Of a stretch of DNA of 64,000 nt, positions 11,186-35,131 are shown in pieces. The position numbers and the translations under genes were made by a program. This stretch comes from Escherichia coli. GTDB taxonomy: Bacteria > Pseudomonadota > Gammaproteobacteria > Enterobacterales > Enterobacteriaceae. Numbering within the stretch: position 1 is the stretch's first letter; every line of letters starts with the position of its first letter. The notes under the pieces are model-generated. The model had not been told where the DNA came from. It did no database searches and saw only the letters and a program-made list of their open reading frames with translations. The stretch lies in assembly GCF_003991155.1 (NCBI RefSeq), contig NZ_CP031293.1; one strand, written 5' to 3'.

Positions 11186-11987
11186 GACTCCTTGCTCATC
11201 GCATGAAGACTCCGAGAGTGAACCCCGTTAGAAAGGGTCACACGCATGCCCCAATACAAAATTATTTGCTCGCCTCTATCGTTGCCATTTCATCAAAAGA
11301 GGAAAAGACAATGATAAAAAAGTTACAAATATGTTAATGAATAAACCAAATTGATCCCGTAATTATATTACGCCGCAAAATCCTTACAATAAACAGGTTT
11401 TTATTGAGCAAATTTGCATTTTTCGACAGTGATCAATTTATAGCGAAATTGTCACGATCTCACCAATTTGATCTACGACAATTTATCGTGTTTTGCAGAT
11501 TTTTTTCAAGAATTAAAAATTGATTTATATCAAAACCAACCAAATATGTTAATTATGTATAAACCATAGATCATTGGTGATTTTATTGTTAATTTATTGT
11601 GAAATATTTATGCAACACAATTATTACAATGAAAAGGTATAGATAAAAAACCAGTGTTTTATTTAACAGAACCGCCTTATCCACTTTTTATAATACCAAT
11701 TGATTAGATTAGCCAATTTGTTGCTATTTTACATAACATATTTTTATCAAAGTTAATTGATTGTTGCCTTTATGAGCACCGGCCGTAAGCCCGTTATGTT
11801 ATTGTTTCATTAGTAATAATCACTTAAATGTATCGATGAAACAGGTATGACTTAGCGGGAGTGATTGTTTCTGAGTGAACAGAAACCACTTTCGCCTGAT
11901 AAATGAAAAATGAGCGATTTTTGCAAGTTAGTTTTTCTATAGCCGAGTACGCTCAGCGCCTCGCTTGATTACAATGAGGTTGCTGCT
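11186..11987 (-). promoter_or_regulatory. Long AT-rich cydA upstream region (expected multi-promoter, ArcA/FNR/H-NS-controlled cydAB regulatory region) merging into the accessory-island junction
   Basis: About 800 bp without a convincing ORF upstream of cydA, visibly AT-rich with several TTGAT-like half-sites. cydAB is known to have a long multi-promoter regulatory region; individual sites were not mapped. Confidence 0.45.
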
Positions 11988-12932
11988 ATGAGTCCTGATA
12001 ATATCGGTTCGGCTGTCAATCGCTTCTCAGGTTGGCCATCTAATGATCCTCTAAAAACAGATAACGAATCAATGACATCACCCGTGACTGTGCAGGTAAT
12101 AAAGATGATTGCCGCCATCCTTGACCCATATCGGATAGTCGTTGGAATCGATACACTTTATACAACGCAGCGCGAAACATTTACCTCAGAGAGTCAACAG
12201 CTCATTGAATCAGCATTGCAAACACTTCATGTGATAAATTTAAATAACCTGGAAACAAATCTCGATGAGGACGGTCACTATCTGGCTTTTGGATATAACG
12301 TTGACACTCCTGACAGAATAACCGTTTCTGCTTATAATGAAAAAAAGCCTGGCTGCTATGGCCAATGTCTTTTAATACAGGATGACGAAACAGACTTATT
12401 TAACCTGATAAAAGTTAAAATTTTTGAAGCCAGGCATAATTATGTCGCTCAATTGATGAGCGATCCGGAATTTATGTTCAAATTTAGTTATAGCGCTCAA
12501 CAAAATAGATTAGAACCTCATCTTCTGGTTCCCACTTATTTCCCTCTAAAAACAAACGAACCGGTTACGCAAGAGGATGTACTGTTACTTTATCGTTTCT
12601 TTAAAATGGATGGTGATTTTAATATATTAACATCAGATGAATACATGAGTATCATGACACCTCTGATGAAGTGTGAGCGCAGCATCCACGACCACAACAG
12701 GTATGTGACGGGCAAAGATACCCTTCTTCTGGACTATCCTCCTTCTGGTAACCAGATATATTTCCATATTTTTCCTGACGAATCAGCAACACTAGTCCTT
12801 TATTTTTCAAACAATGACATTGAATGTTTCGTCTTTGAAAGAGATATTCCGAGCCAGTATCGCTTTTTCAAAATGTTTACCAATCTGGCACTGGTTATTG
12901 ATCAGTTAACCGATGCCAATCAAATACTTTAA
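11988..12932 (+). CDS. Hypothetical protein, 314 aa, no recognisable family; AT-rich gene with Ser/Thr/Pro/Asn-rich N-terminus
   Basis: Uninterrupted 945-nt ORF with an AGG-type SD about 9 nt upstream; visibly lower GC than the flanking cyd and glm genes; no TM segments or known motifs detected by eye. Confidence 0.55.
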   Translation: MSPDNIGSAVNRFSGWPSNDPLKTDNESMTSPVTVQVIKMIAAILDPYRIVVGIDTLYTTQRETFTSESQQLIESALQTLHVINLNNLETNLDEDGHYLAFGYNVDTPDRITVSAYNEKKPGCYGQCLLIQDDETDLFNLIKVKIFEARHNYVAQLMSDPEFMFKFSYSAQQNRLEPHLLVPTYFPLKTNEPVTQEDVLLLYRFFKMDGDFNILTSDEYMSIMTPLMKCERSIHDHNRYVTGKDTLLLDYPPSGNQIYFHIFPDESATLVLYFSNNDIECFVFERDIPSQYRFFKMFTNLALVIDQLTDANQIL

Positions 12933-13012
12933 TTTTTATATATTCCCTGTGGCAAATATTGCTAAACAATGCCCGGGGATTAATTTTTATTACTCACGGA
13001 AAGATTTAAATA

Positions 13013-13435
13013 ATGATCCCATCTCAAATCTCTTTCAACACCCTTCCTGTCAATGCAACATACGCTTCAGAGACAACAGTTGACACACAAAAATTCTCTG
13101 ACATCCTCTACTCAGCGGGGTGTTCCCTAAAGGATCTGGCTTATCTGAGCAGATGTCTGGCATCAATACATCCGACTATCGCCAAAAACATTTATGAAAC
13201 AGAAAATCTCAGCGATCAAAAATTACTACATATTGATTGCCGTAGTACAAATGAAATCAAGATAAATATCTTTTTTGGTCAACAACGAGAAGGATTAATT
13301 GAAATTAATTCTGACACTGTCATTTTTTCGATATTGTCTTCATTAATTGACTCCGCCATTTCTAAATTTCAACACCAAATCCCCGTTAACGGTTCAGTTA
13401 ATCGTGAACTATTGTATGAGGATTATACTGATTAA
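13013..13435 (+). CDS. Hypothetical protein, 140 aa, no recognisable family; second gene of the AT-rich module
   Basis: 423-nt ORF 80 nt downstream of the 314-aa ORF, same strand and same AT-rich composition; no known motifs detected by eye. Confidence 0.5.
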   Translation: MIPSQISFNTLPVNATYASETTVDTQKFSDILYSAGCSLKDLAYLSRCLASIHPTIAKNIYETENLSDQKLLHIDCRSTNEIKINIFFGQQREGLIEINSDTVIFSILSSLIDSAISKFQHQIPVNGSVNRELLYEDYTD

Positions 13436-13981: not shown

Positions 13982-14431
13982 ATGAAGAAAGCAACACTTG
14001 TGATTGGCGTTATTGGCGCGGACTGCCATGCAGTAGGCAATAAAGTTCTGGACCGCGTTTTTAGCAACCATGGCTTCAGAGTCATTAATCTGGGCGTAAT
14101 GGTCAGCCAGGACGAATATATTGATGCGGCCATTGAAACTGGCGCTGACGCGATTGTCGTCTCCTCTATCTATGGGCATGGCGATATCGACTGTCTGGGC
14201 ATGCGCGAACGCTGCATCGAGCGTGGACTGGGGGACATCCTGCTCTATGTGGGCGGTAACCTGGTGGTCGGAAAACATGACTTCGCTGACGTGGAAACCA
14301 AATTCAAAGAGATGGGATTTGATCGCGTCTTTGCCCCAAGTCATGACTTAGAAGATGTTTGTCAGCTGATGGCACACGATATCAACCAACGTCATGACGT
14401 TGATACTCGTATTCTTGAAGAGGCAATCTGA
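13982..14431 (+). CDS. glmS: Glutamate mutase sigma subunit (B12-binding, GlmS/MutS/MamA)
   Basis: ORF-track frame begins 13919; start set to [21 protein letters not shown] (AGGA SD 6 nt upstream). Strong resemblance to the Clostridium cochlearium GlmS B12-binding subunit (DxHxxG-type motif ...[10 protein letters not shown]...). Confidence 0.9.
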
Positions 14432-15819
14432 TGCAAATCGTCTCTGTCGATATTGGATCGACGTGGACCAAAGCAGCCCTCTTCGCCCGGGAGGGGGATG
14501 CGTTAACGTTGGTTAACCACGTACTGACCCCAACCACCACCCATCATCTGGCGAAGGGGTTTTTCTCCAGCCTGAACCTGGTGTTAAACGTAGATAATGC
14601 CCTCCCCCTGTTTAACAACGGTGAGGTTGCATTGAAGTATTCCTCCTCTGCCAAAGGTGGGCTGGCGGTTGCCGCAATGGGATTGGTGCCTTCTATCACC
14701 CTGGAAACCGCGAAAGTAACCGCTCACTCTGCGGGGGCTAAAATTGCGCAATATTACGCCTACAAGCTGAACCGCCGTGATATCCAGGCACTGGAAGAAA
14801 CGCAGCCCGATATTCTCTTGTTCACCGGCGGCACCGACGGCGGAGAAGAAAGCTACGGCCTGAATAACGCCCGTGTGCTGGCAGAATCCAAACTCGACTG
14901 CGCCATTATTTATGCCGGAAACCGGGATATTCAGGACGAGGTGCAGGAGATCCTAGGGCATAAAGACCTGACCATCGTCGACAACGTTCTGCCCGATCTT
15001 GACCATCCGAACCCTTTAGCTGCACGCCAGGCTATCTGCGACATATTCCTTAAACGCATCGTTAAAGGGAAAGGGCTGGATGTCGTTGTTGATAAAACAG
15101 GCGAAGAACCAATGCCGACACCGTGGACAGTCTTTGAACTGGTTAAGGCAATCAGTAATGTCGATCACAGCTGGAAAGAGTTCATGCTGATCGACATGGG
15201 TGGCGCAACCACCGATGTCTATTCCGCCTGTGCCAACACGCTCTCGCCCGACACCGTTTTACACGGCGTACCGGAACCCTTCGTGAAACGGACGGTGGAA
15301 GGCGATCTGGGAATGCGCGTCTCGGCAATGGTGGTTGGTGAAAGTGCGAAAGAGTTAGTCAATGTGAATTTTGCTCAGCAACCCGCACAGCTGGACGCTT
15401 TTTATCATTACCTCCGTCATCTAGTCGCTCATCCCGACTACTTACCCGCGAATGCAGAAGAAAAATATTTCGATACCGTCCTGGCCGGACTGTGTGTGGG
15501 TTATGCCACCGAAAGACATGCGGGCACCAAAAAAGAGGTCTGCACCTGCGTCGGCAATGTCGATTTACAGATGGGACGTGACCTGACAACCGTGCGTAAA
15601 GTCGTCGGATCCGGCGGATGGCTCTCGCGTGCCAGTCAGTTCGATATGCATCACTGGTTGAAATACCGCGAGTTAAACGACGACGGTAAACGCATTCTCT
15701 TACCGACCGAATTTGAATATTACCGCGATTCCCGGGGGCTATTACCACTGCTGGCAAACGTCGCCAGAGTCGATCCGCTGGCCGCCGCGCGCACCAGTAT
15801 TCAATGCTTAACCCTATAA
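14431..15819 (+). CDS. glmL: Glutamate mutase-associated protein GlmL/MutL (putative chaperone/reactivase)
   Basis: 462-aa ORF sandwiched between glmS and glmE as in clostridial glutamate mutase operons; ATGA start/stop overlap with glmS. Confidence 0.85.
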   Translation: MQIVSVDIGSTWTKAALFAREGDALTLVNHVLTPTTTHHLAKGFFSSLNLVLNVDNALPLFNNGEVALKYSSSAKGGLAVAAMGLVPSITLETAKVTAHSAGAKIAQYYAYKLNRRDIQALEETQPDILLFTGGTDGGEESYGLNNARVLAESKLDCAIIYAGNRDIQDEVQEILGHKDLTIVDNVLPDLDHPNPLAARQAICDIFLKRIVKGKGLDVVVDKTGEEPMPTPWTVFELVKAISNVDHSWKEFMLIDMGGATTDVYSACANTLSPDTVLHGVPEPFVKRTVEGDLGMRVSAMVVGESAKELVNVNFAQQPAQLDAFYHYLRHLVAHPDYLPANAEEKYFDTVLAGLCVGYATERHAGTKKEVCTCVGNVDLQMGRDLTTVRKVVGSGGWLSRASQFDMHHWLKYRELNDDGKRILLPTEFEYYRDSRGLLPLLANVARVDPLAAARTSIQCLTL

Positions 15820-15837
15820 CAATTAAGGCTGCAATCA

Positions 15838-17283
15838 ATGGAACTTCGAAATAAGAAATTAACCCATGACGAATTCATGACCGAGCGGCAACAGGTACTG
15901 AAAACCTGGGAAACCGGCAAGGATGTTGAAAACTTTGAAGATGGCGTTAAATACCAACAAACCATTCCTGAGCATAAACGCTTCTCTCTTGCCCTGCTGA
16001 AAGCAGACAAGGAAGGTAAAACTCTTAGCCAACCGCGCGCAGGCGTGGCGCTGATGGACGAACACATCGAACTACTGAAAACACTACAAGAAGAGTGCGA
16101 TCTGCTGCCGAGCACCATCGATGCATATACCCGTCTGAATCGGTACGAAGAAGCGGCTGTAGGGATTAAAAAATCCATCGAAGCCGGAACCTCTAAACTG
16201 AACGGTTTACCGGTCGTTAACCACGGCGTCGCAGCTTGCCGTCGCCTCACCGAAACTCTGCAAAAACCGCTACAGATCCGCCACGGCACGCCAGATGCGC
16301 GTCTGCTGGCTGAAATCTCGATGGCCAGCGGCTTTACCAGTTATGAAGGCGGCGGCATTTCCTACAATATTCCGTATGCCAAGCGCGTAACGCTGGAAAA
16401 ATCGATCCGCGACTGGCAGTACTGCGACCGTTTAATGGGGATGTATGAAGAACACGGGATCCGCATCAACCGCGAACCGTTTGGCCCACTAACGGGTACC
16501 CTGATCCCGCCGTTTATCTCGCACTCTATCGCGATAATCGAAGGCTTGCTGGCGCTGGAACAGGGTGTGAAATCTATCACCGTTGGTTATGGACAGGTCG
16601 GCAGCCTGACGCAGGATGTTGCGGCGATCCAGTCTCTGCGTGAACTTGCACACGAATATTTTCAGAGCTATGGCTATACCGACTATGAATTAAGTACCGT
16701 GTTTCACCAGTGGATGGGCGGCTTTCCGGAAGACGAATCGAAAGCGTTCGCTATTATCTCCTGGGGCGCAGCCGTCGCGGGGATGTCTGGTGCCACCAAA
16801 GTCATCACCAAAAGTCCGCACGAAGCCTGGGGCATCCCGACTGCCGCTGCCAACATTCAGGGGCTGAAAGCCTCCCGCCAGATGCTCAACATGGTCAACG
16901 AGCAGAAATTCCCGCCGTGCCCTGCGGTTGAACTGGAAATTGAACTGATTAAGAGCGAGGTTCGCGCGGTACTGAATAAAGTGTTCGAACTGGGTAATGG
17001 TGATATTGCGCGCGGTACGGTGCTGGCATTTGAAGCGGGCGTACTGGATGTGCCGTTTGCGCCAGCCGCCTGCAACGCGGGCAAAATTCTTCCGGTCCGT
17101 GACAACACCGGCGCGATACGCGTACTGGAAGCCGGAGCCGTTCCATTGCCAAAAGATATTCTCGACCTCCACCACGATTACGTTGCGGAACGCGCACGCT
17201 TTGAAGGACGCCAACCGACATTCCAGATGGTTGTAGATGACATCAATGCTGTATCCCACAGTAAATTAATAGGAAGACCATAA
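15838..17283 (+). CDS. glmE: Glutamate mutase epsilon (catalytic) subunit
   Basis: 481-aa ORF collinear with clostridial GlmE (MELRNKK..., ...SQPRAGVALMDEHIELL..., ...FHQWMGGFPEDESKAF..., ...FQMVVDDINAV...). Confidence 0.9.
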   Translation: MELRNKKLTHDEFMTERQQVLKTWETGKDVENFEDGVKYQQTIPEHKRFSLALLKADKEGKTLSQPRAGVALMDEHIELLKTLQEECDLLPSTIDAYTRLNRYEEAAVGIKKSIEAGTSKLNGLPVVNHGVAACRRLTETLQKPLQIRHGTPDARLLAEISMASGFTSYEGGGISYNIPYAKRVTLEKSIRDWQYCDRLMGMYEEHGIRINREPFGPLTGTLIPPFISHSIAIIEGLLALEQGVKSITVGYGQVGSLTQDVAAIQSLRELAHEYFQSYGYTDYELSTVFHQWMGGFPEDESKAFAIISWGAAVAGMSGATKVITKSPHEAWGIPTAAANIQGLKASRQMLNMVNEQKFPPCPAVELEIELIKSEVRAVLNKVFELGNGDIARGTVLAFEAGVLDVPFAPAACNAGKILPVRDNTGAIRVLEAGAVPLPKDILDLHHDYVAERARFEGRQPTFQMVVDDINAVSHSKLIGRP

Positions 17284-18524
17284 TGAAAATAAAACAGGCT
17301 CTGTTCACCGCTGGCTACTCCTCATTCTATTTCGATGACCAGCAGGCGATAAAAAACGGAGCGGGTCATGACGGCTTTTTTTATACCGGGGAGCCGGTAA
17401 CACAGGGGTTTAACGCCGTTCGTCAGGCCGGGGAGTGCGTATCAGTACAGTTGATTCTGGAAAACGGCTCGGTCGCCGTAGGTGACTGTGCTGCCGTACA
17501 GTATTCCGGGGCAGGTGGTCGCGATCCACTGTTCCTCGCTGAGCACTTTATTCCGTTCCTCAACGACCATATCAAGCCATTACTGGTAGGCCGCGATGTG
17601 GATGCTTTCCTGCCGAATGCCCGTTTCTTCGACAAATTGCGTATTGACGGCAACTTGCTGCATACCGCCGTGCGCTACGGATTATCACAGGCGCTGCTTG
17701 ATGCTACCGCGCTGGCAACCGGCCGTCTGAAAACTGAAGTAGTTTGCGATGAATGGCAGTTGCCACGCGTGGCGGAATCCATTCCATTATTTGGTCAGAG
17801 CGGGGACGATCGATATATCGCCGTCGATAAGATGATCCTTAAGGGCATCGACGTGCTGCCCCATGCACTGATTAATAACGTCGAAGAGAAACTGGGCTTT
17901 AAAGGTGAAAAACTGCGCGAATATGTCCGCTGGCTGTCGGATCGTATTCTGAGCAAGCGCACCAGCGCACGCTACCACCCTACCCTGCACATCGATGTAT
18001 ACGGCACTATCGGTCTGATCTTCGATATGGATCCGCTTCGCTGTGCGCAATACATCGCCAGCCTGGAAAAAGAAGCGCAAGGCCTGCCGCTCTACATTGA
18101 AGGGCCGGTCGATGCCGGTAACAAGCCCGATCAAATTCGCCTGCTGACCGCGATTACCAAAGAGCTGACGCGCCTCGGTTCCGGCGTGAAAATTGTGGCC
18201 GATGAATGGTGTAACACCTACCAGGATATTGTTGATTTCACTGATGCCGCCAGTTGTCACATGGTGCAAATCAAAACCCCGGATCTGGGCAGTATTCACA
18301 ACATCGTCGATGCGGTTCTTTACTGCAACAGCCACAGCATGGAAGCGTACCAGGGCGGCACCTGCAATGAAACTGATGTCAGTGCCCGCACCTGTGTCCA
18401 CGTCGCCCTTGCCGCTCGCCCTATGCGTATGCTGGTAAAGCCAGGGATGGGCTTTGACGAAGGCCTCGATATCGTCTTCAACGAAATGAATCGTACTATC
18501 GCGCTGTTGCAGGCTAAGGATTAA
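17283..18524 (+). CDS. mal: 3-Methylaspartate ammonia-lyase (beta-methylaspartase)
   Basis: 413-aa ORF highly similar by recall to the Clostridium tetanomorphum enzyme (MKI...FYFDDQ.AIK.GAGHDGF.YTG..., ...HMVQIKTPDLG..., ...CNET...); ATGA overlap with glmE. Confidence 0.9.
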   Translation: MKIKQALFTAGYSSFYFDDQQAIKNGAGHDGFFYTGEPVTQGFNAVRQAGECVSVQLILENGSVAVGDCAAVQYSGAGGRDPLFLAEHFIPFLNDHIKPLLVGRDVDAFLPNARFFDKLRIDGNLLHTAVRYGLSQALLDATALATGRLKTEVVCDEWQLPRVAESIPLFGQSGDDRYIAVDKMILKGIDVLPHALINNVEEKLGFKGEKLREYVRWLSDRILSKRTSARYHPTLHIDVYGTIGLIFDMDPLRCAQYIASLEKEAQGLPLYIEGPVDAGNKPDQIRLLTAITKELTRLGSGVKIVADEWCNTYQDIVDFTDAASCHMVQIKTPDLGSIHNIVDAVLYCNSHSMEAYQGGTCNETDVSARTCVHVALAARPMRMLVKPGMGFDEGLDIVFNEMNRTIALLQAKD

Positions 18525-18527
18525 CAA

Positions 18528-19898
18528 ATGGCTCGTTCTTTTAAAGTCTTATCGCCAACGGCAATCCTCGGGTATGGATTCCCGGAAGAGAGCTTCCGCA
18601 AAGCGATGGCAGAATCGCCCGATCTGATCGCCGTTGATGCAGGCTCTTCCGATCCTGGCCCCCACTACCTCGGAGCGGGCAAACCGTTTACCGATCGCGC
18701 AGGGGTCAAGCGCGATCTGCGCTATATGATCACCGCAGGCGTGCAAAATAATATACCGGTGGTGATCGGAACAGCTGGCGGTTCTGGTGCCGCACCACAC
18801 CTGGAGTGGTGCCGAGAAATAATTCATGAGATTGCCCGGGAAGAGCGACTCGTGTTCTCGATGGCGCTGATCCCGGCAGACGTTGACAAAGCCATCGTCC
18901 ACCAGGCGCTGGATAACGGCAAAATCACGGCGCTGGATTTTGTCCCGCCGTTAACCCACGACGCGATTGACGAAAGTACGTATATCGTTGCGCAAATGGG
19001 CATCGAACCCTTCCAGCGGGCGCTGAAAGAAGGCGCGCAAGTGGTGCTGGGCGGGCGCGCTTACGACCCGGCCTGCTTTGCTGCGCTCCCGATCATGCAA
19101 GGCTTTGATGAAGGTCTGGCGCTGCATTGTGGGAAAATCCTTGAATGCGCGGCAATCGCCGCAACGCCCGGCTCAGGCTCTGACTGTGCGATGGGCATCA
19201 TTGATGACAACGGCTTTACGCTGAAGACATTTAATCCGAAGCGTAAATTTACCGAAACGTCAGCGGCTGCACACACACTGTATGAGAAATCCGATCCCTA
19301 CTTCCTGCCTGGACCTGGCGGCGTGTTGAACCTGAAAGGCTGCACATTTAAAGCGGTCAATGACGGCGAAGTGTACGTCAGCGGTTCTAAGCATGAAGAA
19401 ACGCCGTATGCCCTGAAACTGGAAGGTGCGCGACGGGTGGGCTTCCGCTGTCTGACCATCGCAGGAACGCGCGACCCGATCATGATCGCCGGGATCGATA
19501 AAATCATCGATGAAGTCAAAACCAGCGTTTCACGTAACCTGTCGCTCGACGATGACAGCATTCGCATCAATTTCCACCTGTACGGCAAAAACGGGGTGAT
19601 GGGCGACCATGAACCGATGCAAACTGCCGGGCATGAGCTGGGGATTGTCCTTGATGTAGTTGCACCGACCCAGGAAATTGCCAATAGCGTTTGCTCGCTG
19701 GTGCGCTCTACCATGCTGCACTACGGCTATGAAAACCGCATCGCTACCGCAGGCAATCTGGCGTTCCCGTTCTCCCCTTCTGATATCCAGGGCGGGCCGG
19801 TATACGAATTTTCCATATATCACCTGATTGAAGCCAACGACGCTCTGCGTTTTGATTTCCATATTGAACAGGTGACGCCAGAAGGAGTTCAGGCATGA
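18528..19898 (+). CDS. Conserved hypothetical protein, 456 aa; family not confidently assigned (size and pairing reminiscent of AtuA-like DUF1446 proteins)
   Basis: ORF starting 3 nt after the mal stop with an AAGGA SD; no cofactor motif recognised by eye. The DUF1446 suggestion is from memory of domain architecture, not from alignment. Confidence 0.7.
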   Translation: MARSFKVLSPTAILGYGFPEESFRKAMAESPDLIAVDAGSSDPGPHYLGAGKPFTDRAGVKRDLRYMITAGVQNNIPVVIGTAGGSGAAPHLEWCREIIHEIAREERLVFSMALIPADVDKAIVHQALDNGKITALDFVPPLTHDAIDESTYIVAQMGIEPFQRALKEGAQVVLGGRAYDPACFAALPIMQGFDEGLALHCGKILECAAIAATPGSGSDCAMGIIDDNGFTLKTFNPKRKFTETSAAAHTLYEKSDPYFLPGPGGVLNLKGCTFKAVNDGEVYVSGSKHEETPYALKLEGARRVGFRCLTIAGTRDPIMIAGIDKIIDEVKTSVSRNLSLDDDSIRINFHLYGKNGVMGDHEPMQTAGHELGIVLDVVAPTQEIANSVCSLVRSTMLHYGYENRIATAGNLAFPFSPSDIQGGPVYEFSIYHLIEANDALRFDFHIEQVTPEGVQA

Positions 19899-20212
19899 AA
19901 CAGTCAATTGTCTCACTGGCGCAAGTCATTCGTTCGAAAAATGCCGGACCTTACGAACTGGTTTTAGATATTTTATTTAAAACGAAAGAAAACTATGAGC
20001 GAGTTAAATCATCAGGGCAATTAACCCCAGAACTGATTGCGCGCTTATATCATGTTGAACCTGACTTTATTCACCGTATTGTCTGGTTTGATCCTTCTAA
20101 CGCAGTAAAAATCGTCATGCCACGAGATATTATCTCCGGGAATGTAGGTGACAATGATGTCTATGGTGCACAGCAACATGCACCTTTATTAAATATGAGT
20201 TTCGATTTGTAA
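19895..20212 (+). CDS. Conserved hypothetical small protein, 105 aa (possible DUF4387-like partner of the preceding gene)
   Basis: ORF whose ATG overlaps the stop of the 456-aa gene (ATGA), implying translational coupling; no motifs recognised by eye. Confidence 0.6.
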   Translation: MKQSIVSLAQVIRSKNAGPYELVLDILFKTKENYERVKSSGQLTPELIARLYHVEPDFIHRIVWFDPSNAVKIVMPRDIISGNVGDNDVYGAQQHAPLLNMSFDL

Positions 20213-24964: not shown

Positions 24965-25234
24965 AATGCCTTCCCTTAAAAATAGTTGAAACTATCAAAA
25001 AACCATTACTTATTGCTAAGTAATGGCAACCAAAGCAGCAATCAATATTTTATAAAAATCATGTTCGATATTTATAACCTGGTAAGCCTGGCGTGACAAT
25101 TGTCTCAATCAGACAATAATAATCCGAAAAGCAAAACGCCCTTCGGATTATTATGATTCAAGTTAAGTGAAGATTATTAAATTGATAGCAATTATCATAT
25201 CTATGGATATTATGACAAACAATCAACAAAAATT

Positions 25235-26955: not shown

Positions 26956-27906
26956 TTAATTTGTTCTATCTGTTTTCCCCCGCCGGACAATACTGGTCAC
27001 CAGGCGAGCGGCAACTTTCGCAGTTAAATTATCGCGGTCCAGGTCCGGGTTAAGTTCGGCAATATCCGCAGCAATCAACTTCTCGCTACCGGCGATTAAA
27101 TTCACAATGGCTTCAGTAATATTTAACGGCACGCCTAACGGTGATGGAGCAGAAACACCGGGCGCCTGATAACCTGGTAAAACATCGAGACAAATCGTTA
27201 AATAAATGGCGTCACAAGCCTGAATATCTGCCGAGAGCGCATTAGCGATCTCATGCAAACCACGTTCAAATTGCAGAGATTCGTCCAGCCAATAACGCAC
27301 ACCGAGACAATCAGCGCGATCAAATAACGCCTGAGTATTGGCAAAACGACTTATTCCCAGCACGCGATAATGAAACGGTTTGCCATGCTGCGCGTTCCAC
27401 TCTTGCATCTGACGAAACGGCGTACCTGAATTGGCTTGTTCCGCCATCCGTAAATCAAAATGCGCGTCAAGGTTCACAATCAGTAACCGCTGAATATCCG
27501 GACGCGACTGCATAATCCCCTGAAATGTTCCCCACGCCACTTCATGACCGCCCCCCAGAACCACCGGTAAACTGCCGCGCGCAATGGCTGTAGATACGTT
27601 AGCCGCCAGACGATTTTGTGCGGATTCCAGCGCGTGGTCCTCGCTTTGTACATCGCCCATATCGAAAATAGCGCCTTCACAGAGCACTGGCATATTTCCC
27701 AACATGCTGCGCAACGCGCCCGGTCCGCCTGCTGCACCCGCTCGCCCATCATTACGTTGCACTCCGTCATCAACGGCAAAACCAATCAGCGTACAACCGC
27801 CGTGGCTTTGTTCACTAAACGGTTGCACATGCTGATGCCAGCGAGTGCTGATGCCGGTTTCCTGCGAGTCAACACGCCCACTCCACGGCAAAAATGTTTG
27901 CTTCAT
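26956..27906 (-). CDS. hutG: Formimidoylglutamase (arginase-family HutG)
   Basis: ORF-track frame extends to 27945; start set to MKQTFLPW, whose ATG overlaps the hutI stop by 1 nt. Arginase-fold motifs (GGGHEVAWG, NLDAHFDLR, DVLPGYQAPGVSAPSPLG) resemble Salmonella/Klebsiella HutG. Confidence 0.85.
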   Translation of the reverse strand: MKQTFLPWSGRVDSQETGISTRWHQHVQPFSEQSHGGCTLIGFAVDDGVQRNDGRAGAAGGPGALRSMLGNMPVLCEGAIFDMGDVQSEDHALESAQNRLAANVSTAIARGSLPVVLGGGHEVAWGTFQGIMQSRPDIQRLLIVNLDAHFDLRMAEQANSGTPFRQMQEWNAQHGKPFHYRVLGISRFANTQALFDRADCLGVRYWLDESLQFERGLHEIANALSADIQACDAIYLTICLDVLPGYQAPGVSAPSPLGVPLNITEAIVNLIAGSEKLIAADIAELNPDLDRDNLTAKVAARLVTSIVRRGKTDRTN

Positions 27907-29117
27907 TACCAACTCCTTTTTCCGCCGACAATAAGCCCCTGGCAAGGCTGATGCCCAAACCAGTAAGCCAGTTCACGTGGATGATTAAGATCCCAGACCG
28001 CCATATCCGCCCGTAATCCCGGTGCAAGTTCACCCCGGTCAATAAGTCCAAGTGCCTTTGCCGCATTACGCGTAACGCCCTGAACGGCTTCCAGCGGCGT
28101 CATGCGAAACAGCGTACAGGCCATATTGATCATCAATGGCAATGACATATTGGGAGACGTTCCGGGATTATGGTCCGTGGAGATAGCAATCGGCACACCT
28201 GCGGCCCGCAGAGCGACAATCGGCGGCAGATGGGTTTCGCGCAGGAAGTAATAAGCACCGGGAAGCAAAACCGCCACTGTTCCAGCCGCTTTCATGGCGG
28301 CGATCCCCGACTCGCTCAGGTACTCCAGATGATCGCAGGAGAGTGCAGAAAACGCCGCTGCCAGCGCCGCGCCTTGCTGGTCAGAAAGCTGTTCGGCATG
28401 CAGTTTTACAGGTAATCCATAGCTTTGCGCTTTACTGAAAACGCGCCGTACCTGCTCTGGAGTAAAGGCGATGTTTTCACAAAAAGCATCAACTGCATCA
28501 ATCAGCCCCTGTTCATGCAACACGCACATCCAGTCGCAAAGCGCCGTAATGTAATCATCACTGCGCCCGGCAAACTCTGGCGGCAGGCTGTGCGCCCCGA
28601 GAAACGTAGACTGAATATGTAACCCGGTAGATTGCTGCAAGCGGCGGATCACGCGTAAACAACGTGCTTCATCTTCCAGCGTTAAGCCATAACCCGATTT
28701 GATTTCAAGCGTACTGACGCCTTCACGTTGCCAGTTTCGCAGTCGCTGCGCCGCCAGTTCAAACAACTGTGTTTCGCTGGCTGCCCGCGTGGCATTAACC
28801 GTAGATAAGATCCCGCCGCCCGCTCTGGCGATATCTTCATAAGCCACGCCTTGCAACCGCATCTCAAACTCGTTCGCCCTCTGGCCGCCATACACCAGAT
28901 GTGTATGACAATCCACCAGACCGGGTGTCAGCAACTTACCCTGTAGATCGTGTTCCTCTGTAATATCAGCCGTCAGTTCACGGGGGATCTGCGTGGCCTT
29001 CCCAAGCCAGACAATCGAGTCACCACGGCTGATTAATGCCCCCTTTTCAATCACTCCCCAATCGTTAGCGGAAAGCGTCGCCAGCGTGGTATTTCGCCAG
29101 AGCGTTAATGCACTCAT
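27906..29117 (-). CDS. hutI: Imidazolonepropionase
   Basis: ORF-track frame extends to 29150; start set to MSALTLWRN (ATGA overlap with the hutD stop). Amidohydrolase motif DCHTHLVYGG and overall collinearity with HutI. Confidence 0.85.
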   Translation of the reverse strand: MSALTLWRNTTLATLSANDWGVIEKGALISRGDSIVWLGKATQIPRELTADITEEHDLQGKLLTPGLVDCHTHLVYGGQRANEFEMRLQGVAYEDIARAGGGILSTVNATRAASETQLFELAAQRLRNWQREGVSTLEIKSGYGLTLEDEARCLRVIRRLQQSTGLHIQSTFLGAHSLPPEFAGRSDDYITALCDWMCVLHEQGLIDAVDAFCENIAFTPEQVRRVFSKAQSYGLPVKLHAEQLSDQQGAALAAAFSALSCDHLEYLSESGIAAMKAAGTVAVLLPGAYYFLRETHLPPIVALRAAGVPIAISTDHNPGTSPNMSLPLMINMACTLFRMTPLEAVQGVTRNAAKALGLIDRGELAPGLRADMAVWDLNHPRELAYWFGHQPCQGLIVGGKRSW

Positions 29118-29704
29118 AAGGATTTTTCCCCTCGTAGATAATAAAGCCACCAGCCCGCCAGCTCACCGACGGAGACTTTCTTCCGTGGTACGAAACGCCA
29201 GGGCCTGCCATCAGGTGCAACCAGCCATAACAACATATTTGCCGCGACAAACACCCTTTTCTTGCCGCTTATCCACTCCCCTTCACACAGCGTGAACAGG
29301 CCCGCTTGCGCAAGTGACGGAGGACGCCAGTCAACGGCACTTTGCACCCGCAACATCCCCGCATCGCCTTCCCGCGCCATAACATTCAGATCGCGAACCC
29401 CGCCGCCCAGCAGCTGGCAATCAGGCATAGCTTCTCCAGGGAAAATTAAGGCGGGATCGTGACGTTGCAGGTTGATGATCGAATCGGCAAACGTTAGCTT
29501 CACCCCTTCCCCGTCGAGAATCGCGAGGCCACGAACCACGCCAGGCCACGCTGAAAAAGAGCCATCCTGACTGACATTCGCCATACTGATGCGCAACAAC
29601 CAGTTTTCATCATCGGGCCAGGCAAGCAGCTGTCGGGTAAACCCCCCGCCGTTGCGCCACGGTTGCAGCGGCTTATCCATTGCAGAAATCAGCATCGGTT
29701 CCAT
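29114..29704 (-). CDS. hutD: HutD/Ves-family protein
   Basis: 196-aa ORF with the PWRNGGG motif I associate with HutD/Ves; located within the hut cluster. Confidence 0.7.
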   Translation of the reverse strand: MEPMLISAMDKPLQPWRNGGGFTRQLLAWPDDENWLLRISMANVSQDGSFSAWPGVVRGLAILDGEGVKLTFADSIINLQRHDPALIFPGEAMPDCQLLGGGVRDLNVMAREGDAGMLRVQSAVDWRPPSLAQAGLFTLCEGEWISGKKRVFVAANMLLWLVAPDGRPWRFVPRKKVSVGELAGWWLYYLRGEKSL

Positions 29705-29705: not shown

Positions 29706-31115
29706 TTAAGACTCGGGATAAATCGTATAAGCAGGAACGCAGGTGGTGCGTTTGGCCCACGGGTAATAGATAACGGCGGTAATTAACAAGCCGACAATCC
29801 AGGAGATATCCGCCCCATCCATCAGGACAGAAATGGGTCCCTGATACAGTTTTTGATTCAGGAAGGGGATCTGCACCAACACGCCTACGCCATAGCACGT
29901 CAAAGCGGTTTTGTTATACGCGCCATAACGCCCTTCCGGGGTATAAAGTGCCGGAATATCGGTTTTACCTTGTGAGATGAAGTAGTAGTCGATGAGATTA
30001 ATGGCGCTCCACGGCACAAATACCGTCAACAGCAGCAGAACGAAGTTTTTGAAATTATTCAAAAAATCTGCGCTTGCCGCCAGCGCGACGACCATCGACA
30101 ACAGCACGAACCCTACAACGTAGGCAGCACGAACACGCTGTGAAACCTGACTGCGATTATTAAAGGCGCTGACGGTCGCCAGAATCGACATAAAGCCACC
30201 GTAGGCATTCAAACAGTTCACCGTCAGTTTGCCGCAAACAATCACCGTATAAATCAGAATGGCGAAGGTGGGTCCGGCTAACTCACCCATAAAACCAACC
30301 TGATCCTTCAGGAAGTTAGCACCACAGGCCGCAACAAGCACGCCAAACGTCATGGCACATTGCGCGCCAAGCGTGGTTCCCAGAAAGGTGGCAAAGAAGA
30401 TTGATTTTGCTGGCGTATCAGAGGGTAAATAGCGGGAATAATCAGAGGCGTAAGGGGCAAACGTTAATTGCCATCCGGCAGAGAGAGCAATCGTTAATAA
30501 AAAGACCGACAGACTAAATGGCTTTTGACCAAATGCCGCAGCCACATCGTAGTGACCGCTAAGTTGAGTGGCCAGGTAAATAAACCCCAGAATACTTAAT
30601 ATCCCTGCAACACGGCCAACGACGTGAATAAGTTTATAACCGACCAATGCGATCATCGCGGTCAGCATGCCGAAAATAATAATTCCGGTCGATGCCGATT
30701 CGAAACCAAATATCCGGTTAATCGCCTGACCGGATAATACTGTACCCGTCGCGGCAAATCCAAGGTACATAATAATCACCATCAGTAACGGTAGCGCCGC
30801 TCCTTTAACGCCAAAGCGGATACGACTGGAGATCATCTGGGGTAATCCCAGCTTTGCCCCCTGCGACGAGTGCAATGCCATTACTGCACCACCAATAATA
30901 TTACCGATTAATAAACCAATTATTGCTGACATGGCTTCGGAGCCAAAAATAATCGCTAACGCGCCGTCCACCACAGCGGTAATTTGTAAGTTAGCACTTA
31001 GCCATAAAGTAAACTGACTGGATGGCGAGCCGTGGCGAGCAGACTCAGGAACGGCGTTAATCGTATTTGATTCTAATACTGGCTTTTTACTGCGGATAGG
31101 GCTGCTTGATTCCAT
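29706..31115 (-). CDS. NCS1-family permease (cytosine/purine/uracil/thiamine/allantoin permease family); putative urocanate/histidine-related transporter
   Basis: ORF-track frame extends to 31160; start set to MESSSPIRSK (AGGAGA SD 7 nt upstream). Multi-TM protein with NCS1/CodB-like layout; substrate inferred only from the hut context. Confidence 0.75.
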   Translation of the reverse strand: MESSSPIRSKKPVLESNTINAVPESARHGSPSSQFTLWLSANLQITAVVDGALAIIFGSEAMSAIIGLLIGNIIGGAVMALHSSQGAKLGLPQMISSRIRFGVKGAALPLLMVIIMYLGFAATGTVLSGQAINRIFGFESASTGIIIFGMLTAMIALVGYKLIHVVGRVAGILSILGFIYLATQLSGHYDVAAAFGQKPFSLSVFLLTIALSAGWQLTFAPYASDYSRYLPSDTPAKSIFFATFLGTTLGAQCAMTFGVLVAACGANFLKDQVGFMGELAGPTFAILIYTVIVCGKLTVNCLNAYGGFMSILATVSAFNNRSQVSQRVRAAYVVGFVLLSMVVALAASADFLNNFKNFVLLLLTVFVPWSAINLIDYYFISQGKTDIPALYTPEGRYGAYNKTALTCYGVGVLVQIPFLNQKLYQGPISVLMDGADISWIVGLLITAVIYYPWAKRTTCVPAYTIYPES

Positions 31116-31278: not shown

Positions 31279-32976
31279 TTAGCGAATCATCGGTAATTTC
31301 AGACCATAGTTTTTGGCACATTCAATTGCCGCTTCATAACCCGCATCCGCATGACGCATAACCCCGGACGCACAGTCATTCACCAGCACACGCGCCAGAC
31401 GTTTTTCGGCTTCTTCGCTACCATCGGCAACAATAACCATCCCGGCGTGTTGTGAATACCCCATCCCGACGCCGCCGCCATGATGCAGGGATACCCACGT
31501 TGCTCCCCCTGCAGTGTTGAGCAAACCGTTGAGCAACGGCCAGTCAGAAACCGCATCACTGCCATCAAGCATGCTTTCGGTTTCGCGGTTCGGGCTGGCG
31601 ACAGAACCGGTATCAAGATGATCGCGCCCAATCACAATCGGTGCTTTTAGTTCACCGTTGCGCACCATTTCGTTGAATGCCAGCCCCGCCAGGTGACGCT
31701 CACCAAGCCCCAGCCAGCAAATACGTGAAGGAAGTCCCTGGAAGGCAATGCGCTCGCGCGCCATATCCAGCCAGCGATGCGTCAGTACGTTATTGGGGAA
31801 CAACTCTTTAATTTTGGCATCAGTTTTATAGATATCTTCCGGGTCGCCAGACAGCGCCACCCAACGGAATGGACCTTTGCCTTCACAAAACATTGGACGA
31901 ATATAAGCCGGAACAAAGCCCGGGAAATCAAAGGCATTTTGCAGACCTTCGTTGAAGGCCACCTGGCGGATGTTGTTGCCATAATCGACAACCGGGATCC
32001 CCATCGCCTGGAAGTCCAGCATCCCCTGAACATGTGCGACGCAGCTCTGTGCCGCTTCTTTTTGCAATCTGGCGTGTTGCTGTGGATCCTGCTGTGCAGC
32101 GCGCCATTGTTCTACGCTCCAGCCCATCGGTAGGTAGCCATAAACCAGATCGTGAGCGGAAGTCTGGTCGGTCACCAGATCCGGCTTGATCGCCCCCTGA
32201 CGTGCACGTTTCACCAGTTCAGGAACAATTTCCGCCGCATTGCCCAACAGCGCGATTGAAACAGCGTCTTTGCGCTCAGTATGGTATTTAATCAGCGCCA
32301 GTGCATCATCGAGATCTTTCGCTTGTTTATCGACATAACGGGTACGCAGACGGAAGTCGATGCTACTTTGCTGGCACTCGATATTTAATGAACACGCCCC
32401 CGCCAGAGTCGCCGCCAGCGGTTGTGCACCGCCCATACCACCTAGCCCTGCGGTCAGGATCCATTTTCCACTCAGCGAATTGTTGTAGTGCTGACGACCC
32501 GCTTCAACAAAGGTTTCGAACGTTCCCTGCACAATGCCCTGACTACCGATGTAGATCCACGAGCCAGCGGTCATCTGGCCGTACATGAACAGACCTTTAC
32601 GATCCAGTTCATTGAAATGATCCCAGTTGGCCCATTGCGGTACCAGGTTAGAGTTGGCAATCAATACGCGCGGCGCATCGGTATGCGTTTTAAACACGCC
32701 TACGGGTTTACCGGACTGAACCAGCAGTGACTCATCAGCTTCCAGATTTTTCAGTGATTCAAGGATTTTGTCAAAACACTCCCAGTTACGTGCCGCACGA
32801 CCAATACCACCATACACCACCAGATGCTGTGGATTTTCGGCAACGTCGGGATCAAGGTTGTTCTGCAACATCCGATAGGCAGCTTCGATCTGCCAGTTTT
32901 TGCAGTGCAGCTGCGTACCGTGTGGCGCATGGATTACACGGCTGGTATCAATACGCGGGTCTGAAGGCTTACTCAT
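31279..32976 (-). CDS. hutU: Urocanate hydratase (urocanase)
   Basis: ORF-track frame extends to 33075; start set to [11 protein letters not shown] (AGGAG SD). Near-collinear with canonical HutU (...[17 protein letters not shown]..., ...[15 protein letters not shown]..., ...[11 protein letters not shown]...). Confidence 0.9.
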
Positions 32977-33733
32977 GAATCTTCTCCTGTTACTTGATAA
33001 AATTAAACGCTGTAATCGGTCAGAAAAAACGAACGAATGAATATAGAAACGGTTTCTATAATTCCCGTTTATCATTTTGTATTATTAATTCATTTAGTGA
33101 ATATTGTTTGTCGTGGTATATTCACTATGAATATAAATTCAAAACCACCAACGCGTTGTATGCGAATTCAATATGCTTAATTTAACTTGTCGAAAAAGTG
33201 ATATTGTTGGCAAAATATTTTCTAATTTGAACATATGAATATGATGAGATTGCAAGATGTCAGTAATTTAATTATATGAGAAATGCGTTAATAACGACCA
33301 GATATTAGCGTAACAACAGGTGTTCCGACACCACACAGTGCGCATAACACAATGATATTTAAAATAAGATCTTCATTATTCGTCATAAAGACATGTTTTA
33401 TTATCATTAATAATCCATTTGTTTTCATCCCACTTTTGATAATTAAAAAACGGCAACAATGGATAGTTACCCGACGTAAAAACAGGCGTAAAAATAAATC
33501 TTAAAATATATCCACTGGAAATTATCATTTTTCATATTTTACAATCTGGCGTCGATAACTGACCCCTTTTATAACACCCCCGTTTGTTAATAGTCTTTTT
33601 TATCTTGTATTGATCGTCATTGCTGCATACACTACGCGCGTTTTCTTTCCCTTTTGCTGGCTGCTGACCGGAAAGACAAAATTACCCTCGCAATAAAGGG
33701 GGTTGTTTAACGTCTATATTTCAGGACAGCGTT

Positions 33734-35131
33734 ATGCATCATCTTTCAAGGCTTGATAAAGCCTTTCTGCGCAAAGGGATCCAACTTTCCCGCGCCAACA
33801 ATATTGTTTCATTATGTCGTCCATCAGGAGCCAGTGCCCACGTACTGCTGCCGGACGAACTGCCGCTGGAAGAAAAAGCAGTGACACAACTGCTTGATTT
33901 TGCAGAAGTGAAGATACCAGACCATCCAGGTTACGTACGCCAGACCTGTGCGACGCCAGATTTTCATCCCGGCAATGGCGTCCCCGTTGGCGCGGTAGTC
34001 GCCTCTACGCCGGATTTAGTCATTCCTGCGGCCATCGGCACCGATATTTCTTGTGGCATGCGGCTGCTGACGACCGGATTAACACTTGAGCAAGCCGAAG
34101 CGAATAAAGAAATAATCACTCAGCGGTTAACACAAGTGTTACTGCAAAATGAGCGCGATGTTCCGTTATCCGCACGAGCGTTCACCGCGCTTTTTGATGG
34201 CGGACCGGCAGATTGCATGTCGGCCTTGCCATCAGCAGGTCTCTGGACACGTACAAATATCCCCCGAATGACGCAAGAGATTGACCGCTGCATTGGGCTT
34301 AACGAGCATAACAGTCATTCGCGTTATGCCCCACCCGCCCTACTGGTAACGGACCGCCCATTACTCCGCGATCCTTGTCTTGGTACGCCGGGTTCAGGTA
34401 ATCATTTTATTGAACTTCAGGTGGTTGATAGCGTGGTTGATCGCCATGTTGCCTGGCAACAAGGGCTGAAAACGGGCGATATTGTGGTGATGATCCACAG
34501 TGGATCGCGAGATGTTGGCTTTTACGTCGGAAGACGCTGGATGGATCGCGCCCGTGCTGAATGGCCCACCGGACATAAACATCCACAAAGCGGGTTATAT
34601 GGCCTGGCAGGCGGACTGGCGGAGGAATATCTACAAGCGATGGGAATGGCGGCGCGTTACGCGTGGTTAAATCGCGTCACAATTGCCGAAATGGTGCGCG
34701 TATGTCTTGCCAATCTCTTTCATCAGGACAATTCGCATCTGGTGGTGGATGTGCCGCATAACATCATCCTTCGCGAGCATGAAATGAATATTCATCGCAA
34801 AGGTGCAACACCGGCACGCGCGGGCAATCTGGCGTTAATCCCCGGTTCAATGGGCGATTATTCGTGGCTTGCAGTCGGTTGCGGCAACCCGGAGTGGCTG
34901 TGGTCTTGCAGTCACGGAGCAGGACGCAGCCAGCGTCGGCAGGCCATGCACTCACGCGCGACTGAAGAGTCAACGTTGCCGTGGCAATGCGTCACATTGC
35001 GCGAAGAACGGCGTATTGAAGAAGCGCCAGCTGCTTATAAAGATATTGGTCCGGTTATCGAAGCCCAACAAGAGGCCGGATTAATTCATCCAGCGGTTAG
35101 ATTCCGACCGTGGTTAACGTTTAAGGCATAA
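33734..35131 (+). CDS. RtcB-family RNA ligase paralogue with about 35-55 residue N-terminal extension
   Basis: 465-aa ORF with RtcB signatures by eye: IPAAIGTDISCGMRLL, GSGNHFIELQ, MIHSGSRDVG, ALIPGSMGDYSW, SCSHGAGRSQRR, AYKDIGPVIEAQ. Confidence 0.85.
   Translation: MHHLSRLDKAFLRKGIQLSRANNIVSLCRPSGASAHVLLPDELPLEEKAVTQLLDFAEVKIPDHPGYVRQTCATPDFHPGNGVPVGAVVASTPDLVIPAAIGTDISCGMRLLTTGLTLEQAEANKEIITQRLTQVLLQNERDVPLSARAFTALFDGGPADCMSALPSAGLWTRTNIPRMTQEIDRCIGLNEHNSHSRYAPPALLVTDRPLLRDPCLGTPGSGNHFIELQVVDSVVDRHVAWQQGLKTGDIVVMIHSGSRDVGFYVGRRWMDRARAEWPTGHKHPQSGLYGLAGGLAEEYLQAMGMAARYAWLNRVTIAEMVRVCLANLFHQDNSHLVVDVPHNIILREHEMNIHRKGATPARAGNLALIPGSMGDYSWLAVGCGNPEWLWSCSHGAGRSQRRQAMHSRATEESTLPWQCVTLREERRIEEAPAAYKDIGPVIEAQQEAGLIHPAVRFRPWLTFKA

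Follow-up and report, generated by a model that had tools for sequence, protein, structure and literature searches.

In Clostridium tetanomorphum, histidine is classically degraded via urocanate, formiminoglutamate, glutamate, 3-methylaspartate, mesaconate and citramalate to pyruvate and acetate. Escherichia coli is the standard example of an enteric that lacks histidine utilization (hut) genes. We analysed a stretch of 64,000 nucleotides, in the following called the window, of E. coli contig NZ_CP031293.1 (GCF_003991155.1), whose cydA-sucD interval contains ~24 kb that are variable with respect to E. coli K-12 (window 11559-35130). This island combines the genes of a B12-dependent methylaspartate pathway (glm arm) with a hut operon (hut arm) that ends in the gene of an ergothionase-family lyase. 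On balance, we lean towards the view that the island consists of two complete, separately acquired catabolic modules which meet at L-glutamate, and that the hut module starts from histidine betaine. From urocanate onwards, the route predicted for the window passes through the same intermediates as that of C. tetanomorphum, ending in pyruvate and acetate. Clostridia possess a true histidase, a two-subunit mesaconase and a citramalate lyase of the citrate lyase type, whereas the counterparts in the window are a betaine lyase, FumD and CmlAB, the latter belonging to a different protein family.

The glm cluster of E. coli O157:H7 was described in 2015 by Kronen and Berg, who showed that FumD is an efficient mesaconase; the cluster contained a DUF1446 gene of unknown role, a citramalate lyase was not found and the fate of citramalate was left open (PMC4682846). 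This cluster, glmS-glmL-glmE-mal-DUF1446-(DUF4387)-gltP-fumD-cobA-LTTR (LysR-type transcriptional regulator), occupies the same chromosomal site as the glm arm of the window and shares 98-99% nucleotide identity with it. What sets the window apart from O157:H7 is the interval from the LTTR gene to sucD, which in the window holds the lyase gene, the hut arm and an intact RtcB gene and in O157:H7 only fragments of the lyase and RtcB genes. Cml of Raoultella planticola, encoded by cmlAB, converts citramalate directly to pyruvate and acetate, and mesaconate-dependent growth and labelling required this enzyme, which was a gift of the Berg laboratory (bioRxiv 10.64898/2026.01.16.699985). As in R. 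planticola (9ERQ/9EVF), an AtuA-family and a DUF4387 subunit, predicted to form a citramalate lyase, are encoded after mal in the window.

The closest described relatives of the lyase lack the 4-methylideneimidazole-5-one (MIO) group of histidine ammonia-lyases (HAL). In Shewanella woodyi, the MIO-less Swoo_3913 is a histidine betaine trimethylammonia-lyase of the periplasm, which forms urocanate and trimethylamine and does not deaminate histidine (bioRxiv 10.1101/2025.08.13.670108). According to two recent preprints on this class, SO_3057 is an ergothionase and SO_3299 is specific to N(pi)-methyl histidine betaine and not to histidine betaine. These specificities are told apart by one position: the Treponema enzyme has Lys384 here, a thiolate-binding residue reported to be essential for ergothionase, whereas Swoo_3913 has Asn and SO_3299 has Gln. 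According to a paper of June 2026, E. coli has no annotated homologue of ergothionase, and it was also noted in 2026 that an ergothionase activity described for E. coli in 1962 had never been linked to a gene.

The hut arm is located on the - strand. Here and below, genes were identified using curated NCBIfam models with their own cut-offs (bits quoted as score vs cut-off) or by the PDB or Pfam matches given:
25235..26905, - strand: ergothionase/histidine-betaine lyase family protein of 556 amino acids, predicted histidine betaine trimethylammonia-lyase (PF00221; PDB 6S7J)
26956..27906, - strand: hutG, formimidoylglutamase (TIGR01227, 292 vs 229 bits)
27906..29117, - strand: hutI, imidazolonepropionase (TIGR01224, 451 vs 298 bits)
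29114..29695, - strand: hutD, HutD/Ves bicupin (matches to PDB 5FCC, HutD, and 1YLL)
29706..31115, - strand: NCS1-family permease, predicted urocanate importer (PF02133)
31279..32976, - strand: hutU, urocanate hydratase (TIGR01228, 934 vs 375 bits; RefSeq start)

Urocanase, imidazolonepropionase and formimidoylglutamase of the four-step enteric Hut pathway thus all score above their equivalog cut-offs, while HutU fails both thiourocanate hydratase models (NF058530: 670 bits vs a cut-off of 930). Neither a histidase nor a GntR-family (HutC) gene was detected in the island by the NCBIfam models or in the RefSeq annotation.

The lyase gene is the last cistron of this operon, 50 bp past hutG. The best PDB match of its product is the Treponema denticola ergothionase 6S7J (290 bits, E 5e-85), compared with 174 bits for Pseudomonas putida HAL, and with 281 bits it stays below the cut-off of the hutH model TIGR01225 (539 bits). 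The sequence GSIGAADIM aligns with GSVGASGDL of HAL, Ser being replaced by Ala and Gly being deleted; the Ala-Ser-Gly triad, from which the MIO cofactor is formed, is absent from the lyase and from all 86 aligned relatives. PF00221, the aromatic amino acid lyase family, was matched by all relatives. Residues Y77, H117, Q308, R314, N339 and E466 are present and invariant in the alignment of relatives. They agree with the list published for Swoo_3913 (Tyr77, His117, Gln308, Arg314, Asn339, Glu467), a comparison made by list and not by alignment. At the position of the ergothionase Lys384, the lyase has Ile438 (motif GFGSLHIPF), whereas lysine-type relatives read AFGAIQKPF. Among the 86 relatives, this position is occupied by Lys in 68, by Ile or Val in 11 (E. 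coli clade, locus L004, Enterococcus) and by Asp in seven. With a positive n-region, a hydrophobic core and an A-x-A site, the N-terminus (MKGLIRRVTVTVVLWSVCSIAMA/KST) has the make-up of a Sec signal peptide, and this leader is retained in a relative with 85% identity. The ATG of the leader is preceded, at a distance of 5 nucleotides, by an AAGGAA ribosome-binding site; the internal ATG used in some annotations has no such site.

The signal peptide and the absence of both the MIO triad and the thiolate-binding lysine mean that the lyase cannot be a histidase. Since HutU is of the urocanase and not of the thiourocanate type, HutI and HutG are canonical and Ile replaces the lysine, histidine betaine is the most economical substrate. 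Most likely, the enzyme cleaves this compound to urocanate and trimethylamine in the periplasm, a specificity that is deduced and not established because the neutral Ile438 is not the Asn of the characterized Swoo_3913. Both enzymes are MIO-less members of PF00221 with a signal peptide, the catalytic Tyr, the ligands of carboxylate and imidazole and a neutral residue at the Lys384 position. As Swoo_3913 was not among the 80 closest loci, it must be more distant than the lysine-type relatives of 50-57% identity. Ergothionases (T. denticola 6S7J, Shewanella oneidensis SO_3057) also lack MIO, and 6S7J is the closest solved structure by sequence; in contrast to them, the window lyase has no thiolate-binding lysine and its partner hydratase is a urocanase, not a thiourocanate hydratase. 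The Shewanella lyase supplies a periplasmic urocanate reductase for respiration, whereas the window lyase is paired with a permease and cytoplasmic Hut enzymes, as in assimilation. No urocanate reductase or flavocytochrome c gene is present in the island, the neighbours of the lyase gene being hutG, hutI, hutD, the permease gene and hutU. A second, lysine-type lyase was not found in E. coli; the 144 weak matches all represent the same lyase gene.

Two further groups of relatives were observed in the lyase survey. The Enterococcus loci L005-L007, L011-L013 and L088 encode lysine-less lyases of the 'SLHVP' type that have no signal peptide; the cluster to which they belong (sigma-54 activator, CoA-transferase, MFS transporter, lyase, NMO-like FMN oxidoreductase) is conserved and looks like a different betaine pathway. 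In Sutterella and its relatives (L068, L074, L075, L079), lyase genes of the Asp subclass with the motif FGATED[S/T/A]MV directly adjoin genes of SdhA-like flavoproteins, the pattern expected of putative lyase-reductase pairs in respiration. Locus labels between L003 and L095 denote the comparison loci, with L003 for E. coli strain 405, L008 for a contig of Logan SRR27755633, L090 for Comamonas testosteroni, L093 for E. coli IAI39 and L095 for Escherichia fergusonii.

Homologues of the NCS1 permease with 60-72% identity occur in Comamonadaceae, rhizobia and actinomycetes. In C. testosteroni, the homologue (65%) is part of a canonical hutC-hutH-hutC-permease-hutU-hutD-hutI cluster, directly upstream of hutU-hutD-hutI; the identities of the other products to those of the window are 81% (80.6%) for HutU, 56% for HutI and 36% for HutD. 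The window thus shares the block of hutU, NCS1 permease, hutD and hutI with canonical clusters of the Comamonadaceae type, to which HutG adds the ending of the four-step enteric pathway. It differs from canonical clusters in that it has no MIO histidase and no HutC, and an exported betaine lyase stands in place of the histidase. On the enterobacterial contig L008 (positions 1419-5377), a permease and a lyase, both 85% identical to those of the window, are accompanied by a decayed 3' hutU fragment upstream, and hutD, hutI and hutG are absent. If the lyase is exported as predicted, the species imported by the permease should be urocanate. The urocanate transporter HutTu of Pseudomonas, too, is presumably a member of the NCS1 family.

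Comparison of the window with IAI39 revealed 71 synonymous and 14 non-synonymous differences in the lyase gene, corresponding to a synonymous divergence (dS) of 0.20 and a ratio of non-synonymous to synonymous divergence (dN/dS) of 0.055. For hutI, dS was 0.17 and dN/dS was 0.05. These low ratios indicate purifying selection on both genes. As dS is ~0.2 for the lyase gene and hutI and 0.003-0.03 for neighbouring genes, the hut arm is a recombination mosaic, which points to imported divergent alleles of these two genes, whose donor may be another Escherichia species. Lyase alleles of E. coli form identity classes of at least 99%, ~97% and ~94.5%.

The glm arm on the + strand comprises the following genes:
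13982..14431, + strand: glmS, B12-binding subunit S of methylaspartate (glutamate) mutase (NF002612, 253 vs 110 bits; RefSeq start)
14431..15819, + strand: glmL, accessory (reactivating) protein of the mutase (NF040745, 508 vs 475 bits)
15838..17283, + strand: glmE, catalytic subunit E of methylaspartate mutase (TIGR01503, 865 vs 390 bits)
17283..18524, + strand: mal, methylaspartate ammonia-lyase (TIGR01502, 544 vs 286 bits)
18528..19898, + strand: cmlA, large subunit of a CoA-independent citramalate lyase, AtuA/DUF1446 family (PDB 9ERQ_A/9EVF, 972 bits)
19895..20212, + strand: cmlB, small subunit of citramalate lyase, DUF4387 (PDB 9ERQ_B 'subunit B (cmlB)', 193 bits)
20373..21653, + strand: dicarboxylate/amino acid:cation symporter (DAACS), GltP/DctA-like (DctA 314 and GltP 304 bits, both below cut-off)
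21761..23413, + strand: fumD, class I fumarase/mesaconase (NF011921, 1286 vs 1060 bits)
23423..24025, + strand: cobA/cobO, cob(I)alamin adenosyltransferase (TIGR00708, 247 vs 168 bits)

All components of a methylaspartate pathway are present: the mutase subunits S and E with GlmL, Mal and the mesaconase, each above its equivalog cut-off, and citramalate lyase by its PDB match. CmlA is roughly 92% identical over its full length (residues 1-456) to the protein deposited as 'Citramalate lyase, subunit A (cmlA)' (9ERQ_A/9EVF), and its gene overlaps cmlB by 4 bases. Neither cmlA nor cmlB has an NCBIfam match, and RefSeq labels the products 'AtuA family' and 'DUF4387'. FumD shares 543 of 550 residues (99%) with FumD of O157:H7. 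With the AtuA/DUF4387 pair recognized as CmlAB, the glm arm is complete through citramalate cleavage and, as judged from its genes, covers every step by which glutamate would become pyruvate, acetate and ammonia. Pseudescherichia, E. fergusonii, Yersinia, Morganella and the betaproteobacterium Paludibacterium all share the block glmS-glmL-glmE-mal-cmlA-cmlB, and in the first four the symporter gene likewise follows cmlB. From cmlB to the symporter gene there is a gap of 160 bp, which contains a near-perfect hairpin with a stem of ~14-15 bp (GTAGATGCCTGAAT ... ATTCAGGCATCTAC; window 20295-20328), which could act as an internal terminator or as an RNA processing site splitting the arm.

On the preferred reading, the lyase would be exported via Sec and would strip trimethylamine from histidine betaine (hercynine) in the periplasm, leaving urocanate. 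The NCS1 permease would bring urocanate into the cell, where HutU, HutI and HutG would turn it into L-glutamate and formamide. The B12-dependent mutase would then convert glutamate to 3-methylaspartate, from which Mal would form mesaconate and ammonia; FumD would convert mesaconate to (S)-citramalate, and CmlAB would split the latter into pyruvate and acetate. Any serial flux of this kind would, we think, be facultative and confined to anaerobic, B12-replete conditions, not an obligatory coupling of the arms. A previous sequence-only reading of the window had already let one arm end in L-glutamate and the other begin there, which is supported by the gene identities. Histidine, which it named beside urocanate as the compound degraded, does not agree with an island that has no histidase and encodes a MIO-less lyase with a signal peptide, so that entry is likely by histidine betaine or imported urocanate. 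Its statement that no citramalate lyase is encoded in the window was wrong, as the AtuA/DUF4387 pair matches 9ERQ/9EVF. The genes it named were confirmed by NCBIfam, but six were missed, namely those of the lyase, the AtuA and DUF4387 proteins and RtcB, and two AT-rich open reading frames (ORFs); the first three of these alter the conclusions.

The distribution of the arms was determined in 5426 complete E. coli genomes, the glm arm and the whole island being counted at a coverage of at least 80%. The glm arm was present in 1117 genomes, the hut arm in 143, the lyase gene in 144 and the whole island in 142; hence 142 of the 143 hut-bearing genomes have both arms. The hut arm and the lyase gene were chromosomal in every case. 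We rejected the co-occurrence of the arms as evidence of functional coupling, as adjacency and common descent explain it equally well.

Comparison of the cydA-sucD junction across genomes, as the sequence-only reading had proposed, recovered the segment and its variants but also glm-LysR clusters without hut genes. In O157:H7, the LysR gene is followed almost directly by sucD. The 667-bp spacer contains decayed pieces of the lyase gene (window 25235-25372 and 25715-25776; ~87-88% identity) and of rtcB, so that the glm-only state of O157:H7 must be the result of a deletion in the full layout. In E. coli strain 405 the order is cydA-ORFs-glm-LysR-RtcB-mngB-mngA with an intact RtcB gene, and the 460-bp spacer between LysR and RtcB (L003 16780-17369) matches neither K-12, O157:H7 nor the window. 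Pseudescherichia vulneris has the order cydA-glm-LysR-sucD and E. fergusonii (L095) the order mngB-mngA-mngR-glm-LysR-sucD. The proteins of both glm loci are 71-90% identical to those of the window, and no lyase or hut remnants were found in their LysR-sucD spacers. In our reading, the glm genes and LysR are the older residents of the cydA-sucD site; the hut arm and rtcB were inserted between LysR and sucD within Escherichia and later lost in most lineages. A single shared history of the island, as previously assumed, is too strong a claim: the arms are separate in origin and separable, and 87% of the glm-bearing E. coli genomes have no hut arm.

The following regulatory features were found between and beside the arms:
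24059..24964, - strand: LysR-type regulator, GcvA-like (NF008352, 221 bits, below cut-off)
24029..24055, no strand assigned: G+C-rich terminator-like hairpin between the convergent cobA and LysR genes (11-pair stem with nine G-C pairs, then a T-rich tail)
25002..25027, - strand: hairpin and T-run between the lyase stop and the LysR start, terminator-like or an operator dyad (11-pair stem, TTTTTT)
32977..33733, no strand assigned: AT-rich spacer between hutU and rtcB with presumed divergent promoters (GC 0.377; weak promoter-like matches only)

The LysR gene lies on the strand of the hut arm, downstream of it, and is convergent with cobA. Orthologues accompany hut-less glm clusters with 71-74% identity in P. 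vulneris and E. fergusonii and 65% in Yersinia; the orthologue of Paludibacterium (46% identity) is divergent from glmS. Divergence from the target gene is the classical arrangement for regulators of the LysR family. For these two reasons, the company of hut-less glm clusters and the orientation in Paludibacterium, we assign LysR to the glm arm, which it would be expected to control. The earlier proposal of a single LysR regulator between convergent arms therefore stands with respect to the convergence, but the regulator belongs with one of them.

The dyad at 25002..25027 is conserved in O157:H7, and the hutU-rtcB spacer contains a dyad with 10-bp arms at 33094-33128. The LysR-proximal dyad TTACTTA-N4-TAAGTAA occurs only once, and the dyads of the different spacers are unrelated to each other. 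Scans with the FNR, CRP, sigma-54, NtrC and ArcA consensus sequences yielded nothing convincing beyond the known FNR site of cydA, and the promoter scan did no better than chance (19 sites, 16.5 expected). The promoter regions on the glmS side and on the hutU side are both very AT-rich, which, as a speculation, would be compatible with silencing by H-NS and with the failed laboratory induction of the glm cluster.

Different explanations for the hut arm were considered. That, as in the sequence-only reading, it degrades histidine or urocanate while the glm arm stops at citramalate is highly improbable: hutU, hutI and hutG are genuine and, with the permease, could make exogenous urocanate usable, but the sole lyase falls far short of the hutH model (281 against 539 bits) and lacks the MIO triad, a related MIO-less enzyme does not deaminate histidine, no histidase is present and the CmlAB genes directly follow mal. 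We also consider it very unlikely that the lyase is the true ergothionase behind the activity of 1962 and that the arm degrades ergothioneine. Its best solved relative is indeed 6S7J, the ergothionase lysine is found in its nearest relatives beyond the clade and the E. coli activity was still without a gene in the 2026 paper. Against these points stand Ile at a position where Lys was reported to be essential, the failure of HutU in both thiourocanate hydratase models, the canonical HutI and HutG and an island without desulfhydrase or hydantoinase genes. An unlikely explanation is, furthermore, that the lyase acts on some other N-alpha-trimethylated compound, yields a product other than urocanate and merely stands beside a urocanate-utilization operon. 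The lysine-less SO_3299 proved to act specifically on N(pi)-methyl histidine betaine, and the 'SLH[I/V]P' subclass, uncharacterized so far, includes the members of Enterococcus and L004 in non-hut contexts. On the other hand, the imidazole-binding residues His117 and Glu466 are retained, the gene is the last hut cistron 50 bp past hutG, a permease of the same family accompanies it in L008, and it is under strong purifying selection in its hut context.

With respect to the relation between the arms, it is possible, although we doubt it, that they are mere neighbours in a recombination-prone site, each self-standing, with glutamate as a hub and with no dedicated flux or common regulation. The site also houses mngRAB, RtcB and orphan ORFs in varying orders, and glm with LysR occurs there in P. 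vulneris and E. fergusonii without hut genes or lyase remnants. Conversely, a hut arm without an intact glm arm is almost never found (142 of 143 together), which linkage and shared descent also explain, and serial use of the arms would make biochemical sense in view of the classical C. tetanomorphum route. Several observations weigh against two modules that meet at glutamate and start from histidine betaine, and those on the arrangement of the arms equally favour mere neighbourhood. The arms are convergent, have their own promoters and are separated by terminator-like hairpins; no shared operator was found across the upstream regions of glmS, LysR and hutU; the hut arm is missing from some 975 (87%) of the 1117 E. 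coli genomes that carry the glm arm; and Kronen and Berg could not induce the glm genes of O157:H7 (PMC4682846). In a survey of the 80 best lyase-relative loci from 100,044 species-representative genomes, hut genes stood beside the lyase gene in one locus (an E. coli-like metagenome-assembled genome, 98%) and glm genes in none; since the single hut locus is E. coli-like, the coupling of hut genes and lyase is without an independent replicate. The specificity position is Ile, compared with Asn in the proven histidine betaine lyase and Gln in the N(pi)-methyl-histidine-betaine lyase, the nearest relatives outside Escherichia (53-63% identical) are mostly lysine-type and ergothionase-like, the other lysine-less relatives (Enterococcus, L004) occupy non-hut contexts, and the Ile/Val subclass to which the lyase belongs is the uncharacterized one mentioned above. 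Finally, the functions of the hut-arm genes in E. coli are predictions from sequence. Taking all this together, we still lean towards two complete modules, acquired separately, with histidine betaine as the starting point of the hut module.

The borders of the island are clear. Similarity to K-12 ends at 11558 on the left, within the cydA regulatory region (80% identity), and resumes at 35131 on the right; cydA starts at ~11185 (- strand) and sucD ends at 35230. This bears out the ~24-kb accessory segment postulated from the sequence alone, as well as the presence of the mng genes in the same interval of K-12 (cydA-mngB-mngA-mngR-sucD). That mngRAB and the island are alternatives is true for K-12 but not for strain 405 and E. 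fergusonii, which have both. According to the ORF listing, a + strand gene block at 13.9-24.0 kb faces a - strand block at 24.06-33.0 kb, and by base composition AT-rich spacers (11-14 kb and 33-34 kb) flank the AT-poor coding regions. E. coli strain 2016C-3878 matches the window at 100% identity, its sole difference being one additional IS1, and the reference strain IAI39 has the same layout. As had been noted before, no mobility machinery is evident: the hallmarks of integrative islands (integrase, tRNA or attachment site, flanking direct repeats) were not found at this locus. There is no integrase, transposase or recombinase among the annotated island genes, no significant flanking direct or inverted repeat, and no tRNA adjoining the island or within 9 kb of it. 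The only tRNAs of the window, the lysT-valT cluster (1383-2086, - strand), and the CpoB/ybgF RNA thermometer (3013-3151, - strand) were both detected by Rfam and are core features unrelated to the island, within which the Rfam search revealed no riboswitch or other RNA element.

Three further genes complete the island:
11988..12932, + strand: AT-rich ORF of 314 amino acids (no NCBIfam, Pfam or PADLOC match; GC ~0.36-0.38)
13013..13435, + strand: AT-rich ORF of 140 amino acids (no NCBIfam or PADLOC match)
33734..35131, + strand: rtcB, RtcB-family RNA ligase paralogue (Pfam RtcB, residues 63-464, E 9e-95)

Both AT-rich ORFs precede glmS in all E. coli layouts examined and are absent from P. vulneris and E. 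fergusonii. The longer one is annotated as hypothetical in O157:H7, strain 405 and IAI39; the shorter one carries the IS1 insertion in strain 2016C-3878. The stand-alone rtcB gene is divergent from hutU over the AT-rich spacer of 757 bp. It is intact in IAI39 and strain 405 and fragmented in O157:H7, and about 150 more E. coli genomes have the rtcB upstream region without the hut arm. The RtcB-family gene is cargo outside the pathway. As PADLOC gave no match for RtcB or the orphan ORFs, their interpretation as a defence system was dropped.

The glm cluster (2015), CmlAB (structures and a preprint) and the MIO-less lyase family (2019-2026) are already known. Our literature search found no description of an ergothionase-family lyase or of a hut island in E. 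coli, nor of such a lyase joined to a Hut assimilation operon or located beside a methylaspartate pathway. Despite the statement of June 2026, 144 of the 5426 complete E. coli genomes carry an ergothionase-family lyase gene, which is under purifying selection and part of a hut operon. The record of the locus is also corrected, in that the methylaspartate pathway is not open-ended but includes CmlAB. If the predicted role of the hut arm is true, a trimethylamine-forming reaction would be added to E. coli, with a bearing on the axis of trimethylamine and trimethylamine N-oxide in the gut. Histidine betaine lyases would have a second physiological use, in Hut assimilation besides respiration with urocanate reductase, and the B12-dependent methylaspartate pathway, the purpose of which in enterobacteria has been a puzzle since 2015, would gain a natural upstream source of glutamate. 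It is a tentative and rather doubtful extension of this idea that the island works in minority lineages (IAI39 and a strain named ST648) as an anaerobic route from histidine betaine to trimethylamine, formamide, ammonia, acetate and pyruvate. Were it to apply, the natural inducer that has so far eluded work on the methylaspartate cluster would be a hut-arm intermediate acting via LysR, the ergothionase-like activity described for E. coli in 1962 would be traced to its gene family, and strains with the island would be unrecognized producers of trimethylamine in the gut from dietary or fungal histidine betaine.

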